From: Escherichia virus TH41
Reading direction: 5' to 3' (one strand)
DNA length: 64,000 bases
Sequence record: MT446412.1
Numbering within the stretch: position 1 is the first letter of the stretch; each line of letters starts with the position of its first letter. The notes beneath the pieces were generated by a model, which did not search any database, was not told the DNA's origin, and worked only from the letters and a program-made list of their open reading frames with translations. Both the position numbers and the translations under genes were made by a program. Below, piece after piece: positions 1,516 through 35,370 of this stretch.

Positions 1516-2648
1516 TTGAATTATATGATAACTTAATGAAGCTTTGCGCCGAATCCGATAAAGGTAAGTTTTTCTATACGGATTTTGTTTCTCCATTTGA
1601 AACTAAGTTCCGCATCTTTAGCTATAACTATGCTTCCTATAGTGATTGGCTTCTTGATGATGCGCTGGAGTGTCGTGGCATTATGTTTGAAATGGATGAC
1701 AATGGTCCAGTTCGCATTGCCGCCCGTCCTATGGAAAAATTCTTTAATCTGGGTGAGAATCCAATGACCATGGACCTTAACCTTGATGAGGTTGTCCTGG
1801 TTACTGCAAAAGCTGATGGTAGCTTGGTTTCTACTTATATGGACCAGACTAATATCGCCTTTAAATCCAAAGGGTCAATCAAAAGCTCCCAAGCTGCTGA
1901 ATCCTTGCAGGTGTTTAAACAAGAGCATCGCAGTGCATTCAGGGCTCGCGTAACTGAAATCACTGAAGCTGGTTATACATGCAATATGGAATATGTTGCA
2001 CCAACCAACCGCATTGTTTTGCCTTACCAGGAACGTGACCTGATTTTACTGAACGTTCGCCATAATGAAACTGGTGAATATATTCCTTATCAGGAACTGT
2101 TCAAAGATGCTGCGCTCCGTCCTTTCCTGGTTGAAGCATATGACCCGGCGAGCATTGAGAATGTTCGTGGTATGAAAGAGATTGAAGGCTTCGTCTATGA
2201 GCTGGCAAGTGGTCAGAAGTTCAAGATGAAAACAGAATGGTATTGTGCTCTGCATCATACTAAAGACTCCATTAATAATAATGAGCGACTGTTTGAAGTT
2301 GTTGTTGCTGGCGGGGCAGATGATGTTATTGCCATGTTTACTGGCGATACTTATGCTCGCGAAAAAGTTAATGCCTTTACTGTAACGCATCTGGATTATC
2401 TGTCCAATACATTGGGATTGTTGCTTGATGCTCAGAAACAACTGGCAGGAAAAGACCGACGCGAGTTTGCGATTAAAGGTCAAGAGTTGTGCAAACCATA
2501 CCCGGGATTGTTCTCCGTATTAATGAACACCTATCAACGCCCACAGGAAACTGAACAAACGATTGCTCAAATCAATAAAGTTTTCCTTAAAAATCATAAA
2601 CTTTACATTCCGTCGGACTACCAAGCGGAAGTAATCCTTCCTGAATAA
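1512..2648 (+). CDS. rnlA: RNA ligase 1 (gene 63)
   Basis: FRIFSYNYASYSDWLL, ECRGIMFEMD, nucleotidyltransferase lysine motif TAKADGSLVSTY; 378 aa vs T4 Rnl1 374 aa; start overlaps denA stop (ATGA). Confidence 0.85.
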   Translation: MIELYDNLMKLCAESDKGKFFYTDFVSPFETKFRIFSYNYASYSDWLLDDALECRGIMFEMDDNGPVRIAARPMEKFFNLGENPMTMDLNLDEVVLVTAKADGSLVSTYMDQTNIAFKSKGSIKSSQAAESLQVFKQEHRSAFRARVTEITEAGYTCNMEYVAPTNRIVLPYQERDLILLNVRHNETGEYIPYQELFKDAALRPFLVEAYDPASIENVRGMKEIEGFVYELASGQKFKMKTEWYCALHHTKDSINNNERLFEVVVAGGADDVIAMFTGDTYAREKVNAFTVTHLDYLSNTLGLLLDAQKQLAGKDRREFAIKGQELCKPYPGLFSVLMNTYQRPQETEQTIAQINKVFLKNHKLYIPSDYQAEVILPE

Positions 2649-3470: not shown

Positions 3471-3814
3471 GTAATCTCACTGCAGGGCTTATGCTCGCCC
3501 TGGTAGTAACTGCTGGTAGTGGTTTCTATCTAAAAGCAAAAGTGGATAATCTCAAGACAGCGGTGGCGGAAGTCACCAAAGTCGCAGAAGATAATGCGAA
3601 AAATCTACAATCAGTAAAAGACCAGGTTAATCAAATTAATCTCCTTGACCAACAGCGCCAGGAATATGTTGAACACCTGCAGAAGGAAAATGATAAACTT
3701 CGCGCAGATGCAAAACGTACTAAGGTTGTGGCAGCGAAGCCTAAATTAGTTGAAAAACAGATTAATCAGTCTTTTGATAAGTTCGCCCAGGACTTCCAGG
3801 AGCTCACCAAATGA
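3461..3814 (+). CDS. i-spanin (Rz-like inner-membrane spanin subunit, pseT.3-like)
   Basis: 117 aa with N-terminal hydrophobic helix LTAGLMLALVVTAGSGFYL followed by a charged coiled-coil-like region; position matches T4 pseT.3. Confidence 0.6.
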   Translation: MQISNLTAGLMLALVVTAGSGFYLKAKVDNLKTAVAEVTKVAEDNAKNLQSVKDQVNQINLLDQQRQEYVEHLQKENDKLRADAKRTKVVAAKPKLVEKQINQSFDKFAQDFQELTK

Positions 3815-7091: not shown

Positions 7092-7423
7092 TGAATTTAA
7101 TGGATATTTTCCAGGAAGCACTTAAAAATGATTTGGGTGACCATCGTAAGTTGGACCCGGAGACAGCCGCATTTATCAAAGTAACGCTTGCGAATGATGC
7201 TCTGTTTAAAAGTATTCACCCAAGTAATTATGATGCGGTTGTTATTACAGAAGCTCCTGTAGAAATTGGTGAGCGAATGTTTGGGGTGATTTTTGGCGAT
7301 AAGAAAAAACGCTTCAGCGACGGTGATAGTATAATTACAACACATGTTAAGAGCATTACTAAATTGCGACATGAATTATATCGTGTTGAAACTATTAAAA
7401 CCAATTATCTCGTGGTGATGTAA
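7088..7423 (+). CDS. Hypothetical protein
   Basis: 111 aa ORF with start overlapping upstream stop. Confidence 0.45.
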   Translation: MMNLMDIFQEALKNDLGDHRKLDPETAAFIKVTLANDALFKSIHPSNYDAVVITEAPVEIGERMFGVIFGDKKKRFSDGDSIITTHVKSITKLRHELYRVETIKTNYLVVM

Positions 7424-9890: not shown

Positions 9891-9895
9891 GTTCA

Positions 9896-9919
9896 GGGAC
9901 TCTTCGGAGTCCCTTTTTT
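9896..9919 (+). terminator. Intrinsic terminator
   Basis: Hairpin gggactcTTCGgagtccc followed by TTTTTT. Confidence 0.7.
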
Positions 9920-9934
9920 ATTTTCCATAAAGGG

Positions 9935-9964
9935 GTTTACAACAGGGTTGGTCCAGTGCATAAT
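9935..9964 (+). promoter_or_regulatory. Early-type promoter (GTTTAC ... CATAAT) with conserved leader
   Basis: Leader cataatgattccatactgagtta is identical to the one at 33432-33454. Confidence 0.5.
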
Positions 9965-10005
9965 GATTCCATACTGAGTTACACAATAAAACACTGGAGA
10001 ATAAA

Positions 10006-10374
10006 ATGAAAATCAATCTTAACTCATACATCAAAGGTAAAGACCACGACGGTTACAAAGCCATTGAAACTAAAGAAATGCAATGGCACTTGTATAAAGA
10101 ACAATTTGAATTCGTTTCTTGCATGACTCCAGAAGGTCCTTCTGATGACTTCTCCTGGAAAATTATGGTAACAAACTTTTTTACTGGTGATACCTACGAA
10201 CTGAAAACTTTGATTCTTGGTAAGATTCGTTGTAAGACCTATGAAGATGAAGAAACTGGTTATTCTGAAGATGTTACATGGTATCAAAATGGTCGCACCA
10301 CTGCTGATGATTTGATTGAAAAAATGAAAGCTAAGGGTGAATTAAATTTAGATAATTGGATTAAAGTCGCATAA
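10006..10374 (+). CDS. Hypothetical protein (30.x-type cluster)
   Basis: 122 aa ORF; RBS GGAGAA. Confidence 0.5.
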   Translation: MKINLNSYIKGKDHDGYKAIETKEMQWHLYKEQFEFVSCMTPEGPSDDFSWKIMVTNFFTGDTYELKTLILGKIRCKTYEDEETGYSEDVTWYQNGRTTADDLIEKMKAKGELNLDNWIKVA

Positions 10375-30786: not shown

Positions 30787-30812
30787 AAGGGCCGTAAGGC
30801 CCTTATTCTTTT
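30787..30812. terminator. Bidirectional terminator between rnlB and gene 24 paralog
   Basis: gggccGTAAggccc with A-run upstream and T-run downstream. Confidence 0.65.
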
Positions 30813-32086
30813 TCCAGTGGCGGAAGTTTAACACCAAGATAAGAACTCAATTGGCTTTGGTTGGCCATCTTATCCATATCAGCACCATCAATAATGCGAG
30901 CTTCTTTATCGTCTTTAGCAACGGTGTAAGGGTTCGCAGTCAATGCATAACGAGCTAATAACGCAACAGTAGGCTGCAAGCTTTCAGGGTCAACAATAAC
31001 CTTGAATTCCCCTACCGAGGTATCACCCTCATCATCAACTTCGCTAAGACCTTCCGTATAAGGCGCATAATACAAAGATGCGACCGTCTGACCTTCACCC
31101 ATATCAGCATTTACACCAACAATAACATAATCACATGGACTATTCATATCTGCATAAAGAGGCAAACCGTTCTTCAGAACGCCATAGGCTAATTCATCCT
31201 GGTCTTCCTTTTTCTCAACCCAGCCAGAAGCTGCTAAAATAGCTGCACAGCGAGAAGAAGCGACTGCATATGTACCAGCAAACGAAGTCTGACGTTGAAC
31301 TGCAGAATTCATTTCACACATATAATAATACAGGGTTCGCGCCCGGTCCTGGGCGTTATCATATTTCGGGTCAGTTAGATTCAATACACCTTTTTCAGAA
31401 ACACCTTGCACCTTGAAGCGAGAACTGACAGTAATAAGGGATTGCAGTACATCCTTATTAATTTCCTCTGCCATTTGAATGCCGAGAATATTATCAATGA
31501 AATCCGTTGCATCGAAACCGTTTGCTTCCAGGTCTTGAGCAAGCTCGACAGTTAAAGAAGTTTTCAGCTTTCTGGATTTAACTTCAGTCTGCCATTTATC
31601 AATACGAAAACCAGCTTCAGCAATTTCGGGATGACCTTTTTCAAATTTATCAGTGAAAGCTGCATCTGACATCATTCTTATATGGCCCGCCGCAATGGCT
31701 TCAGAAATAACTTCGCCCAAATCAGTTTCGAGAGTCCCGGCGAATGGTGATGCTTCCAAAACTTTGAACACAACACTTTCAAACTGGAACATATCGCCGA
31801 CTGCATAAGCTTCGTCTTTGTTCGTAAATTCTGGGATATTCTTACGCTCGAACATACCAATCTGACCTGCAAATGTTGCTCCACCAAGATAAGTCATTTT
31901 ATCATCTGGGTTCAGAACACGAACACCATACAGCGCAGCAACAGGCTGAGTAGTTTTCTGTTCAGCCACGAGTGCTTTAAAAATTCGTTTATTCGTGGCC
32001 TGAGTATAAGAAAGCAAATTAGGACGGGCGACCTGGTTGGCCGCCGTTAATGTTGATTCGTGAATTAGTGCGTTAATCTTTTGCAT
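30803..32086 (-). CDS. 24: Head vertex protein gp24, divergent second copy
   Basis: 427 aa; QPVAALYGV, KSRKLKT.LTVELAQDLEANGF, EINKDVLQSLITVS, ANPYTVAKDDKEARIID shared with the adjacent copy and T4 gp24; start abuts the upstream copy's stop (TAAATG). Confidence 0.8.
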   Translation of the reverse strand: MQKINALIHESTLTAANQVARPNLLSYTQATNKRIFKALVAEQKTTQPVAALYGVRVLNPDDKMTYLGGATFAGQIGMFERKNIPEFTNKDEAYAVGDMFQFESVVFKVLEASPFAGTLETDLGEVISEAIAAGHIRMMSDAAFTDKFEKGHPEIAEAGFRIDKWQTEVKSRKLKTSLTVELAQDLEANGFDATDFIDNILGIQMAEEINKDVLQSLITVSSRFKVQGVSEKGVLNLTDPKYDNAQDRARTLYYYMCEMNSAVQRQTSFAGTYAVASSRCAAILAASGWVEKKEDQDELAYGVLKNGLPLYADMNSPCDYVIVGVNADMGEGQTVASLYYAPYTEGLSEVDDEGDTSVGEFKVIVDPESLQPTVALLARYALTANPYTVAKDDKEARIIDGADMDKMANQSQLSSYLGVKLPPLEKE

Positions 32087-33367
32087 TTACGCCTCATAAA
32101 TGATTGGCGGAAGTTTAACACCGAGCAGATAAGACATATTGCTCTGACCGGCCATTAAATCCATATTGGTTGCATCGATAATACGAGCTTCTTTATCGTC
32201 TTTAGCAACGGTGTACGGGTTAGCTGAAAGTGCATAACGAACCATCAGAGAGATAGCCGGTTGCAAACTGTCAGGGTCCACAATGACCTTAAACGCGCCC
32301 ACGTGTTCTTCATCATCTAAGTCCAGGCCTTCGGTATAAGGAGCATAGAAGATTGAGCCTACGACTTCATTTCCGCCATAATTTTCTTTAACGCCAACGG
32401 TTACATAATCTAATGGACTGTTAACATCACAGAATACAGGAAGACCATTAATCAAATAACCGTATGCTGTTTCAGGAAGCCATTGTTCATCTTCAGGTTT
32501 ATGCTTCAGCCAACCAGAACCGGCCAGCATAGCAGCAACACGGCTAGAGGCAACAACAAAGGTACCGGAATAAGATGTAGTTTTCTGAATCTCGGAGTTC
32601 ATTTCGCAAACCAGTTCGTACAGTTTACGTGCGCCTTCTGGAGCTGCATCATATGTTAAATCGATGACGCCATTGTCAGAAACCCCAGTTACTTTATAAC
32701 GCTTGGAAACGGTAATAAGAGACTGAAGAACATCTTTGTTAATTTCATCTGCCATAATAGTGGCAAGCAAGTCTTCCAGGAAAGCAGGAGCATTAAACCC
32801 ATTTGCTTCCATATCCTGAGCAAGCTCAACAGTTAATGCAGTTTTCAATTTACGTGTTTTAACCGGAGCATTCCATTTGTTAACCTGGAATACGGCATTG
32901 CTAATTTCAACATCACCGGCTTCAAATTTCTCGGTGTGCGCCGCATCAGGAACCAAACGAATGGTTAATGCAATAAGACCTTCTTGCAGAACATCGGATA
33001 ATACAGTTTCGGTAGTCGATGCAAACGGATTATCAACCAGAGCTTTATAAACGGTATTCTGAAATTTAATGTATCCGCCTTTAGCTACGGCCTGAGTTGG
33101 AGTTGTAAATTCCGGAATTGTTTCACGGTCTTTTGAACCAACTTCACCACCGTAAACGGCACCGGTTTGGAAACTGAATTCATTATCAGGAGTAAGATAT
33201 TTAACACCGTACAGAGCCGCAACTGGCTGGTTCGTACGTTGTTCAGCGATAATATCGCGGTAAATCAATTTGGTTGTAGCGCGGGTCAAAGCAACAAGAT
33301 TCGGGCGGCCCAATGAGTTGCTGGTAGTAGTAGTTGACTCGCGCAGTAATTTGTTAATCTTTGCCAT
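32087..33367 (-). CDS. 24: Head vertex protein gp24, T4-like copy
   Basis: 426 aa; N-terminus MAKINKLLRESTTTTSNSLGRPNLVALTRATTKLIY matches recalled T4 gp24 closely. Confidence 0.85.
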   Translation of the reverse strand: MAKINKLLRESTTTTSNSLGRPNLVALTRATTKLIYRDIIAEQRTNQPVAALYGVKYLTPDNEFSFQTGAVYGGEVGSKDRETIPEFTTPTQAVAKGGYIKFQNTVYKALVDNPFASTTETVLSDVLQEGLIALTIRLVPDAAHTEKFEAGDVEISNAVFQVNKWNAPVKTRKLKTALTVELAQDMEANGFNAPAFLEDLLATIMADEINKDVLQSLITVSKRYKVTGVSDNGVIDLTYDAAPEGARKLYELVCEMNSEIQKTTSYSGTFVVASSRVAAMLAGSGWLKHKPEDEQWLPETAYGYLINGLPVFCDVNSPLDYVTVGVKENYGGNEVVGSIFYAPYTEGLDLDDEEHVGAFKVIVDPDSLQPAISLMVRYALSANPYTVAKDDKEARIIDATNMDLMAGQSNMSYLLGVKLPPIIYEA

Positions 33368-33393
33368 TTGCGCTTTCCTTTTGTGATATACTT

Positions 33394-33401
33394 TATTTAT
33401 A
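33394..33401 (-). promoter_or_regulatory. Late promoter (TATAAATA on minus strand) for gene 24
   Basis: Reverse complement of tatttata, about 27 nt upstream of ATG 33367. Confidence 0.5.
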
Positions 33402-33407
33402 AAAGTT

Positions 33408-33437
33408 GTTTACAACCAGATTAAGATAAGACATAAT
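33408..33437 (+). promoter_or_regulatory. Early-type promoter (GTTTAC ... CATAAT) with duplicated leader
   Basis: Promoter plus leader cataatgattccatactgagtta, identical to 9959-9981. Confidence 0.5.
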
Positions 33438-33478
33438 GATTCCATACTGAGTTAACAAACAAAACCCTGGGGTCCAAA

Positions 33479-33760
33479 ATGAACAAAGCAACTTTCCTTC
33501 TGAACACCTTTAAAAATCTGGAAATTGAAGTTATTGCATTGGTCAACAAATACCCGAATGGTGTTAATGGTAATGCTCTGAACAAACTAGTTAAAAAATA
33601 TGAAAACTTAGCATATGACACTGATTTCTGGTGGAATGGTAATTATTCTACTCACACTAAAGATAAAAATGGTAACTGGTTGAAACTTCAAGAAAACAAT
33701 GTTAACTTCAGAGACCTCATCAAGCGCCGGGTAGAAGTTCATTTAAATGGTATGGTATGA
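33479..33760 (+). CDS. Hypothetical protein inserted between genes 24 and 23
   Basis: 93 aa ORF on the strand opposite the head genes, flanked by an early promoter and a terminator. Confidence 0.45.
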   Translation: MNKATFLLNTFKNLEIEVIALVNKYPNGVNGNALNKLVKKYENLAYDTDFWWNGNYSTHTKDKNGNWLKLQENNVNFRDLIKRRVEVHLNGMV

Positions 33761-33770
33761 AAACAAGAAA

Positions 33771-33795
33771 GGGACCTCAAGGGTCCCTTTTTATT
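33771..33795. terminator. Intrinsic terminator (hairpin plus T-run)
   Basis: gggaccTCAAgggtccc followed by TTTTTATTT. Confidence 0.65.
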
Positions 33796-33810
33796 TAACT
33801 TAATCTAGGA

Positions 33811-35370
33811 TTAAATTCCTTTAACATATACGCGGCGGAAGTAACCGTTCAAGCCGAGGCTATTAACGATGTCCGGCATACCATTCTGAATGCGCTTGGT
33901 CGGAGCCTGAGCAGCAGGGTCAGCAAACGGGTTGATACCGATACCGTAACGGGTTTTGAAGCCCATAACCGGCTGGAAGTTTTTCGGGTCAGAGCCACGC
34001 AGCGGGGTCAGTGCAACATATGGTGCGTAGTAGATACCAGCATCCATTTCGTTAGCGCCTTTGTAACCGATGGTGAAGTAATCTGCACGAGCATACTGGT
34101 CGATATAGACACGGTATTTGCCACCCAGAACACCAGCGAACACAGCTTTAGTGGTGTCAACGTTGAAACCTTTACCCAGACCCTGAGCAGCATAACTTAC
34201 AGAAGTATCAACAGCAGCCAGTACGTTAACTACGTTACGGGAAGCGATGATGAAGTTACCTGCACCACGACCGGTCTGACGAGCGATTTCAGCGGCTTCT
34301 TTATCAATCTGGAACAGTAAAGCTTTGAAGCTTTCACCAGCCCAACGAGCACCACGGATATCAATCGGGTCCTGGAAGTCAAACACACCAGCTTTAGCGC
34401 CAACGGTGTTGGTCATACCAGATTTACCAACCTGTGCGGAGTAGTTAATCCAATCGATAACTTCGCGGTTGATTTCCAGCATAATTTCGGTAGCCAGAAT
34501 ACCACTCAATTCGGCATCAGCATCCATACCGTGAACAGCGCGCAGGTCCTGTGCCAGTTCGATGGAGTAGCTTGCTTTCAGCTGACGGGATTTAGCTTCG
34601 ATAACTTGTTTGTCGATGCGGAAGCCCATTTCGTTCCACGGGTTATCAGAGGAACCGTTAAAACCTTCTTGCAGTTCGGCGATGGAGGTAGCCATACCTT
34701 CAGCCAGTTCAGCCAGCTGACCAGCTTCAACCAGAGCGGTAACAGCAGCGTCAAGTTTAGCAGCGTCAGTAGCAGCAGCATCAACAGTTACAGCTTCAAC
34801 AGCCTGGAAGTGTGCAGAACCAGTTGCTTCGAAGAAGTGAGAATAAATTTTACCAACTTCCAGAACTTTGCTTGCAGCCAGTGCTTCAAAAGTCTGAGCA
34901 GCGCCCTGACCAGAGAACATAGCGTTCGGAGCATACATCGGGTGGAAAGCTTCTTTAGCACCAGCAGCGACAGGGTCTTTACCGTAAACTGCACGCAGGG
35001 CAAATACCTGGCCAGTCGGGTTGTTCAGAGGCTGTACGCCACAAATATCAAACGCAATCAGATGCGGGATAGCACGACGAACCATACCCATAACTGCCGG
35101 CCCAATCTGAGTTACTGCACCAGAGGTCTGGCCAGCGGCGATATTGGTAGCATCATAACCATGGTCACCACCGATTTCAGCTTCGGTCAGGAAAGAACCA
35201 AATGCTTCGGAGATTTTTTCATCACGGTATTCAGGAGCGGTCAGGATATCTTGTTCCTGGTTTTCAAAGATTTTAGCGATGATAGCTTGTTTAGAAGCAC
35301 CAACGATTTCAGGAAGAGCTTCGTTTTCCAGCAGAGCGGACCATTTTTGAACTAATGCATTCTTTTTCAT
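33811..35370 (-). CDS. 23: Major capsid protein gp23
   Basis: 519 aa (T4 gp23 521 aa); N-terminal propeptide-like region and strong overall resemblance to recalled gp23. Confidence 0.9.
   Translation of the reverse strand: MKKNALVQKWSALLENEALPEIVGASKQAIIAKIFENQEQDILTAPEYRDEKISEAFGSFLTEAEIGGDHGYDATNIAAGQTSGAVTQIGPAVMGMVRRAIPHLIAFDICGVQPLNNPTGQVFALRAVYGKDPVAAGAKEAFHPMYAPNAMFSGQGAAQTFEALAASKVLEVGKIYSHFFEATGSAHFQAVEAVTVDAAATDAAKLDAAVTALVEAGQLAELAEGMATSIAELQEGFNGSSDNPWNEMGFRIDKQVIEAKSRQLKASYSIELAQDLRAVHGMDADAELSGILATEIMLEINREVIDWINYSAQVGKSGMTNTVGAKAGVFDFQDPIDIRGARWAGESFKALLFQIDKEAAEIARQTGRGAGNFIIASRNVVNVLAAVDTSVSYAAQGLGKGFNVDTTKAVFAGVLGGKYRVYIDQYARADYFTIGYKGANEMDAGIYYAPYVALTPLRGSDPKNFQPVMGFKTRYGIGINPFADPAAQAPTKRIQNGMPDIVNSLGLNGYFRRVYVKGI

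Follow-up and report, generated by a model that had tools for sequence, protein, structure and literature searches.

In Escherichia virus TH41 (MT446412.1), a small open reading frame, referred to here as ORF93, is located between the late head genes 24 and 23 on the strand opposite to both, which raises the question of how it came to lie in the head module and what it might do there. An earlier note, made from the sequence alone, had proposed that a promoter and its gene were transposed together into this module. We analysed the locus within a window of 64,000 nucleotides, which is the whole stretch of DNA under study. Gaprivervirus phages, such as P896 and TH44, match the region at 97-98% DNA identity; Gaprivervirus is a genus of the Tevenvirinae and corresponds to the VR7/SP18 group. 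The minus strand of the window carries genes 21, 22, 23, the slot, 24(1) and 24(2) in this order, followed by rnlB on the plus strand, and the early genes 31, rIII and 30.8 share the plus strand with ORF93 (Table 1). The tandem gp24 paralogues (30803-32086 and 32087-33367, minus strand) are 56.7% identical to each other, and copies 1 and 2 are 69% and 56% identical to T4 gp24, respectively. Such duplicates were previously annotated as 24(1)/24(2) in VR7 and 24a/24b in JS98, and gp24 is single-copy in Mosigvirus and T4.

Table 1 Features of the slot between genes 24 and 23 and of the second promoter-leader copy in the window
Feature	Position	Strand	Details
Gene 24(1), head vertex protein	32087-33367	-	Left flank of the slot; Pfam Gp23 family, E 8.8e-97; VR7 annotation 24(1)
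Candidate late promoter of gene 24(1)	33394-33401	-	TATAAATA, exact match to the T4 consensus
Predicted early (sigma-70-type) promoter	TTTACA 33409-33414; CATAAT 33432-33437	+	17-nt spacer; consensus scan
Putative 5' leader of ORF93	33444-33478	+	About 35 nt; start point placed 7 nt after the -10
Shine-Dalgarno of ORF93	33469-33472	+	GGGG, 6 nt before the ATG
ORF93	33479-33760	+	282 nt, 93 aa, start MNKATFLL; between 24(1) and 23
Predicted bidirectional intrinsic terminator	33766-33797	both	G+C-rich hairpin and T-run, common to ORF93 (+) and gene 23 (-)
Gene 23, major capsid protein	33811-35370	-	Right flank of the slot; ORF list, Pfam, VR7 annotation
Second promoter-leader copy	9892-10005	+	PeSL-like; predicted to drive gene 30.8 (10006-10374; Pfam Phage_30_8, E 7e-44)

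ORF93 was found to be a real protein-coding gene under purifying selection. The frame is present where it had been proposed, opposite to 24 and 23, and is covered over its full length by PHROG 6003, a family to which no function is assigned (residues 1-90 against profile positions 1-90/90, E 3.6e-47). The dN/dS values were 0.18 between the window and VR7, 0.12 between the window and TH44, and 0.12-0.20 overall, and ratios of about 0.1-0.2 mean that the protein is under purifying selection. Searches with tblastn located ORF93 in 237 phage records at a coverage of at least 80%, and members of the family have already been named VR7ORF190c (VR7), orf173 (JS98) and RB69ORF188c, with the PhAPEC2 copy annotated as 'similar to RB69ORF188c'. 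ORF93 is an ordinary gene, previously annotated as hypothetical in more than 200 deposited T-even-type genomes, and the slot it occupies is the known site of segD. Literature searches returned nothing specific on the family names, on transcriptomes of these genera or on a promoter analysis of VR7.

The family is tiny, comprising 23 clusters among 5.8 billion in word-indexed searches and nine representatives among 1.84 billion in an exhaustive HMM search. Its wider homologues were all phage or metagenomic, and several matches were spurious: two long repeat proteins (P0025 and P0026) were judged so from their many short-stretch matches, and a 160-aa protein with 30 family residues (P0023) looks like an assembly chimera. 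A 90-aa phage protein of the family (P0017) is labelled 'NADPH-dependent curcumin reductase CurA' in one source, which is evidently wrong. Neither the rest of the window nor the TH44 genome yielded a paralogue of ORF93, and every Rfam match in the ORF93 region was far below the gathering score.

Comparisons with related phages showed that ORF93 keeps its place. In VR7, JS98 and PhAPEC2 (Mosigvirus), the homologue is located between 23 and 24 on the strand opposite to both, and in two divergent metagenomic T4-like contigs it is found in the same 23/24 arrangement as in the window, with slot and orientation kept in at least five T4-like lineages (Gaprivervirus, Dhakavirus, Mosigvirus and the two metagenomic T4-likes). 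RB69ORF188c, JS98 orf173 and VR7ORF190c are like ORF93 in family, slot, strand, promoter position and terminator, with no essential difference; compared with the other RB69ORF188c-type members, the Gaprivervirus proteins have a C-terminus that is 4-5 residues longer, and their -10/leader segment is different. Amino acid identities to the window in VR7, JS98 and PhAPEC2 were 93.5%, 58% and 34% for ORF93, 94.6%, 89.9% and 69.1% for gp24, and 97.9%, 98.5% and 82.8% for gp23. The divergence of ORF93 ranks these relatives as gp24 and gp23 do, which is consistent with a long residence in the slot accompanied by fast divergence, and not with repeated acquisition. More distant homologues (about 30-35% identity) belong to arrays of small ORFs that share one strand in Vequintavirinae-type phages, away from head genes, and the presence of a homologue in a Vequintavirinae-type phage means that the family is common to two unrelated myovirus groups. 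One such homologue, 32% identical, lies among small hypothetical ORFs at 3501-3767 of MH533020.1 ('Acinetobacter phage ABPH49', Vequintavirinae).

The position of ORF93, between 23 and 24 and opposite to them, is no anomaly. The two genes had been taken to be adjacent in T4, but in T4 (NC_000866) segD, a 672-nt gene encoding a GIY-YIG homing endonuclease of 223 aa, is located between them on the opposite strand, and the insertion site of segD at 23/24 in antisense orientation is described in a review (PMC2988022). A gene on the opposite strand at this site is thus the normal state in T-even phages. Within Gaprivervirus, sampled as 33 records that share at least 95% identity with the window in gene 23, ORF93 was present at 90% amino acid identity or more in 31. 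In TH15, the slot is occupied by a 219-aa gene (piece L014, 320-979) that is 72% identical to T4 SegD and matches SegE_GIY-YIG; its orientation and -35 are as in the window, and its -10, leader and terminator hairpin are different. The presence of a segD homologue at the equivalent site of TH15 indicates that the endonuclease gene has moved between Tevenvirinae genera. In TH57, the slot is empty, leaving a gap of 80 nt that lacks the early promoter, has AATAAATA as its late box and carries the same terminator as TH15. In the Dhakaviruses dhaeg, dhabil and CLB_P2, ORF93 is deleted and an intact promoter abuts the terminator in a gap of 123 nt, with the junction near a short TATAG repeat. These phages without ORF93 were isolated and propagated, which means that the gene is dispensable on their isolation hosts.

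The slot is thus polymorphic, carrying ORF93, segD or nothing. The part of the earlier proposal that spoke of insertion into the head module holds in the sense that gain, loss or replacement at the slot is seen in TH15, TH57, dhaeg, dhabil and CLB_P2; a recent insertion of ORF93 is contradicted by its synteny and divergence. Comparison of the 24-23 region across relatives found ORF93 in place in several genera, and segD or an empty slot in other phages. The earlier note had named a conserved core gene of known function as a refutation of its proposal, and this applies by half, as the gene is conserved in place but is neither a core gene nor one of known function. ORF93 is probably a conserved yet dispensable accessory gene, with a small early transcription unit of its own, in a variable slot between 23 and 24.

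The hairpin in the slot of TH57 and TH15 matches the stem-loop of the PeSL-like element upstream of gene 30.8 at 31 consecutive nt (TTCAGGGACTCTTCGGAGTCCCTTTTTTATT), on the opposite transcriptional strand (TH57 piece L011, about 2600-2640, minus strand; window 9892-9922, plus strand), which hints that stem-loops may have been exchanged between loci.

The early-type promoter proposed for ORF93 was recovered by the consensus scan. It agrees with the consensus at 10 of 12 positions, a G at 33408 completes the T4 -35 GTTTAC, and AAAAG precedes it. Local shuffles yielded 2.6 +/- 1.7 promoter-like matches, and the single match at 33409-33437 is not above chance; the predicted promoter is credible because its -35 is conserved, not because of its scan score. 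GTTTACA is invariant at the slot across four genera, and the late promoter together with this -35 is kept in the window, VR7, JS98, PhAPEC2, TH15 (with segD) and dhaeg (empty). Alignment of the region from gene 24 to the slot gene showed that the alleles diverge from the promoter spacer onward. Upstream of T4 segD, ATTTACA, a 17-nt spacer and TATTAT align with the conserved -35 of the other genera. Judged from these alignments, the promoter -35 and the position of the terminator belong to the slot rather than to ORF93. The promoter-like sequence of T4 is located at 7234-7323 of T4 piece L005 on the minus strand; the 2010 review (PMC2988022) reported that no segD-specific promoter was identifiable.

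The candidate late promoter of gene 24(1), TATAAATA, is located 26 nt upstream of the start codon, back-to-back with the early -35. It is conserved in the window, VR7, JS98, PhAPEC2, TH15 and dhaeg, and T4 is one base off (TATAAATAGTA region); we infer its function from the T4 late-promoter consensus (PMC1524935). No TATAAATA was found on the plus strand upstream of ORF93. In the whole window, this motif occurs 19 times against 4.85 expected, with 15/19 on the minus strand, which agrees with the minus strand being the late-gene strand over most of the window.

The leader between the putative start point and the ATG of ORF93 appears to be unstructured. Its minimum free energy was -1.4 kcal/mol (z = +2.2), and 200/200 shuffles folded at least as well, as expected with an efficient translation start. 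A structured regulatory leader upstream of ORF93 was considered and rejected, as the folding was worse than that of every shuffle. The Shine-Dalgarno of ORF93 is GGGG in the window versus GGAG in TH44, VR7 and most other leader copies. GGAG is the cleavage motif of the T4 RegB endoribonuclease, and the GGGG copy of the window may escape RegB control.

The leader was also the ground on which the earlier note linked ORF93 to another locus, and the identity it reported is exact: the 23-mer CATAATGATTCCATACTGAGTTA occurs at 9959-9981 and 33432-33454, and in none of 100 shuffles. The first 6/23 nt of CATAATGATTCCATACTGAGTTA are the -10 hexamer, and a weaker similarity continues through the Shine-Dalgarno to the ATG. 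The two copies in the window are members of a larger family. BLAST placed the 77-nt promoter-leader at 4-10 sites per Gaprivervirus genome, and in the whole genome of TH44, assembled from four pieces for the repeat count, there were 13 copies of the core CCATACTGAGTTA and nine of the 22-mer ATAATGATTCCATACTGAGTTA, all on the early strand, with 0.01 expected by chance. The TH44 copies displayed lie between a -35 (GTGTACA or GTTTACA) and a ribosome-binding site of the ...CTGGAGAATAAAATG type, each before a different ORF, and several have a stem-loop and T-run ahead of them. The early promoters of Gaprivervirus (window 9932-10005 and 33405-33478; TH44) share the transcribed leader GATTCCATACTGAGTTAC.AA.AAAACACTGGAGAATAAAATG. 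In Dhakavirus and Mosigvirus, ORF93 is preceded by another -10 and by another leader of smaller length (TACTATAG...GAGGAG), which indicates that the -10/leader segment was exchanged in the Gaprivervirus lineage.

These comparisons bear directly on the view that the promoter and gene were recently transposed or copied into the head module as a cassette, with a promoter-leader derived from 9959-9981. The identity of the -10 and leader to those of the gene 30.8 promoter over 23 nt, the similarity up to the ATG and the exchange of the -10/leader segment in Gaprivervirus, where Dhakavirus and Mosigvirus differ, speak for such a transfer. However, the leader is a 13-copy genus-wide consensus, and 9959-9981 is therefore not a specific donor; at least five T4-like lineages carry ORF93, the -35 and the neighbouring late promoter in synteny; the divergence of ORF93 tracks that of the flanking genes; and the non-adjacency of 23 and 24 in T4 removes the premise of an interrupted gene pair. 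We consider the cassette unlikely, and for ORF93 itself transposition is largely refuted. What remains of it is that recombination among promoter copies may have homogenised the -10 and the leader, with which the exchange in Gaprivervirus agrees and which would not identify 9959-9981 as the donor.

The downstream end of the unit is also part of the slot. The hairpin and T-run proposed as the terminator of ORF93 are present, and they additionally score on the minus strand: the hairpin at 33766-33792 with its T-run folded at -17 kcal/mol (z = -3.25) on the plus strand and at -15.9 kcal/mol (z = -3.43) on the minus strand, indicating that the predicted terminator is bidirectional and common to ORF93 and gene 23. 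A G+C-rich hairpin was found just beyond the stop codon of gene 23 in every genus compared, including T4 (VR7, JS98, PhAPEC2, T4). The T-run is good only in the gene 23 direction in JS98, PhAPEC2 and T4, and in both directions in Gaprivervirus. In a previous comparison of T4-like genomes, 6/6 had a predicted terminator after gene 23 (PMC1524935).

A promoter and terminator that belong to the slot could suggest that early transcription through it is what matters, by interference with or antisense control of 23 and 24, and that ORF93 is incidental. The promoter and terminator persist in dhaeg-type phages without ORF93, and the -35 is conserved even upstream of T4 segD. Against this, the dN/dS of 0.1-0.2 and the conserved predicted fold of ORF93 point to the protein, TH57, which retains nothing of the promoter, is a viable isolate, and the terminator precedes gene 23 and would allow little antisense RNA to be made. 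This explanation is decidedly improbable.

The protein itself is small, hydrophilic and basic (10.9 kDa, GRAVY -0.6, pI 9.4). The pI was 9.4-9.6 in 5/5 family members computed, the length is 87-93 aa across genera, and residues M1, K3, F6, N30, G31, N32, A45 and Q71 are invariant in an alignment of 19 sequences. An AlphaFold2 model built from this family alignment (pLDDT 93.7, pTM 0.80) contains a helix at 3-24, a helix at 31-48, a beta-hairpin at 52-61/67-71 and a helix at 77-91, and a three-helix bundle with a beta-hairpin is confidently predicted. The earlier note had recognised no domain in the product, and our searches agree with this, as Pfam, NCBIfam, PADLOC, PDB and Foldseek gave no function-bearing match. 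No match to Pfam, NCBIfam or PADLOC was usable; PHROGs yielded family 6003 alone; the best profile match among PDB sequences was to de novo helical peptides (E 0.12); the best Foldseek match of the model in the PDB had an E of 2.9, with no significant winged-helix or HTH match; and the structure search of BFVD matched a family member alone. The family thus has a confident predicted fold and no relative of known function in sequence or in fold. No catalytic motif was found in ORF93, which is too small for an obvious enzyme, and its basic pI is poor support for nucleic-acid binding.

A role of ORF93 as a head-assembly chaperone or a regulator of gp23 and gp24 would be suggested by its position between 23 and 24, kept across genera. 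However, the gene runs opposite to 23 and 24 from an early-type promoter, and its own strand has no TATAAATA upstream; it is absent from T4 and from the viable TH15, TH57, dhaeg, dhabil and CLB_P2; its homologues in Vequintavirinae-type phages are located within small-ORF arrays away from head genes; and its presence is independent of the gp24 duplication, as Mosigvirus has one gp24 together with ORF93. Such a role is very unlikely. Descent from a decayed segD, as a remnant or accessory domain of a homing endonuclease, is least probable of all, for although ORF93 has the slot, orientation and promoter in common with segD of T4 and TH15, it shows no similarity to SegD (BLASTP E 3.2), no GIY-YIG or other Pfam match and no profile-profile or structural match to the C-terminal DNA-binding region of Seg proteins, and it has a compact, confidently predicted fold, purifying selection and a length of 87-93 aa across genera.

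We therefore return to the reading of ORF93 as an accessory gene with its own early unit, which can be outlined as follows. Host sigma-70 RNA polymerase would start at the T4-type early promoter right after infection and produce a monocistronic transcript consisting of the unstructured, A-rich leader and ORF93. This transcript would end at the hairpin that also stops the converging late transcript of gene 23. Late in infection, the gene 23 unit and the gene 24 promoter abutting the early -35 would supply transcripts that run the other way across the region. The early timing and the start point are deduced from the promoter type, the strand and membership in the promoter-leader family. The product would be soluble and basic, its two long helices being followed by a beta-hairpin and another helix. 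Among possible roles, the binding of a nucleic acid or an acidic protein of the host, for takeover or counter-defence, would be the most likely. Size, charge, dispensability and the patchy spread over unrelated coliphage groups weakly suggest such a host-binding role, and the role would be conditional, because natural isolates lack the gene. The slot would serve as an exchange site bounded by promoter and terminator, and its alleles differ from the promoter spacer through to the terminator hairpin. This allele pattern would be expected from recombination in repeated early-promoter/stem-loop motifs, as in the PeSL model, together with the spread of a homing endonuclease.

A stronger form of this reading is doubtful but deserves mention. 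ORF93 could found a structurally unclassified family of basic early proteins that neutralise a host factor or defence, and its mutual exclusivity with segD could reflect competition between cargo and a selfish gene. If that were true, a useful cargo gene and a selfish endonuclease gene would compete for one expression site bounded by a promoter and a terminator. The idea that modules are exchanged at early promoter and terminator motifs is already established, and the finding of ORF93 matters little alone. Nevertheless, the slot is a clean case from nature in which one resident promoter stands before a cargo gene in some phages and before a homing endonuclease gene in others, and near-isogenic variants with ORF93 (TH44), without it (TH57) and with it replaced (TH15) make a functional test cheap.

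Three known systems can be compared with the locus. T-even phages carry small early proteins for host takeover or anti-defence, and ORF93 is like them in its early promoter, size, dispensability, patchy distribution and rapid divergence; on these traits it may belong to this class. T4 segD is like ORF93 in slot, antisense orientation, a homologous -35/promoter-like sequence and the gene 23 terminator hairpin at its end, and the two are alternative alleles inside one genus, as seen in TH15 and the window. They differ in length (223 versus 93 aa), and ORF93 has no SegD similarity, nuclease motif or evidence of mobility of its own.

The closest comparison for the promoter region is with PeSLs (Arbiol et al. 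2010, PMC2839356; Comeau et al. 2014, PMC4122927). The copy upstream of gene 30.8 is a canonical PeSL-like element, with a stem-loop terminator (9895-9914, 8-bp stem) before the promoter. At ORF93, in contrast, no inverted repeat of at least 6 nt was found in 33368-33478 besides two trivial 6-nt palindromes, so the full PeSL definition does not apply to its promoter, and the sole hairpin is the downstream terminator that ORF93 shares with gene 23, unlike the PeSLs described in the passages concerned. The conserved transcribed leader of the Gaprivervirus repeat (GATTCCATACTGAGTTA...) finds no mention in the PeSL passages of PMC2839356 and PMC4122927, and its strong conservation among the early promoters of this genus is a modest point of value. 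The likenesses, as far as those passages describe PeSLs, are a strong sigma-70-like repeated promoter, an AT-rich upstream region, a Shine-Dalgarno and ATG at the 3' end, small genes of unknown function, an occasional location in a virion module, and coincidence with gene insertion, deletion or replacement among close relatives; where PeSLs occur within virion modules, they are described as almost always adjoining genes of unknown function (PMC2839356). By analogy with these elements, recombination at such motifs may have caused the insertions, deletions and replacements at the slot between 23 and 24.
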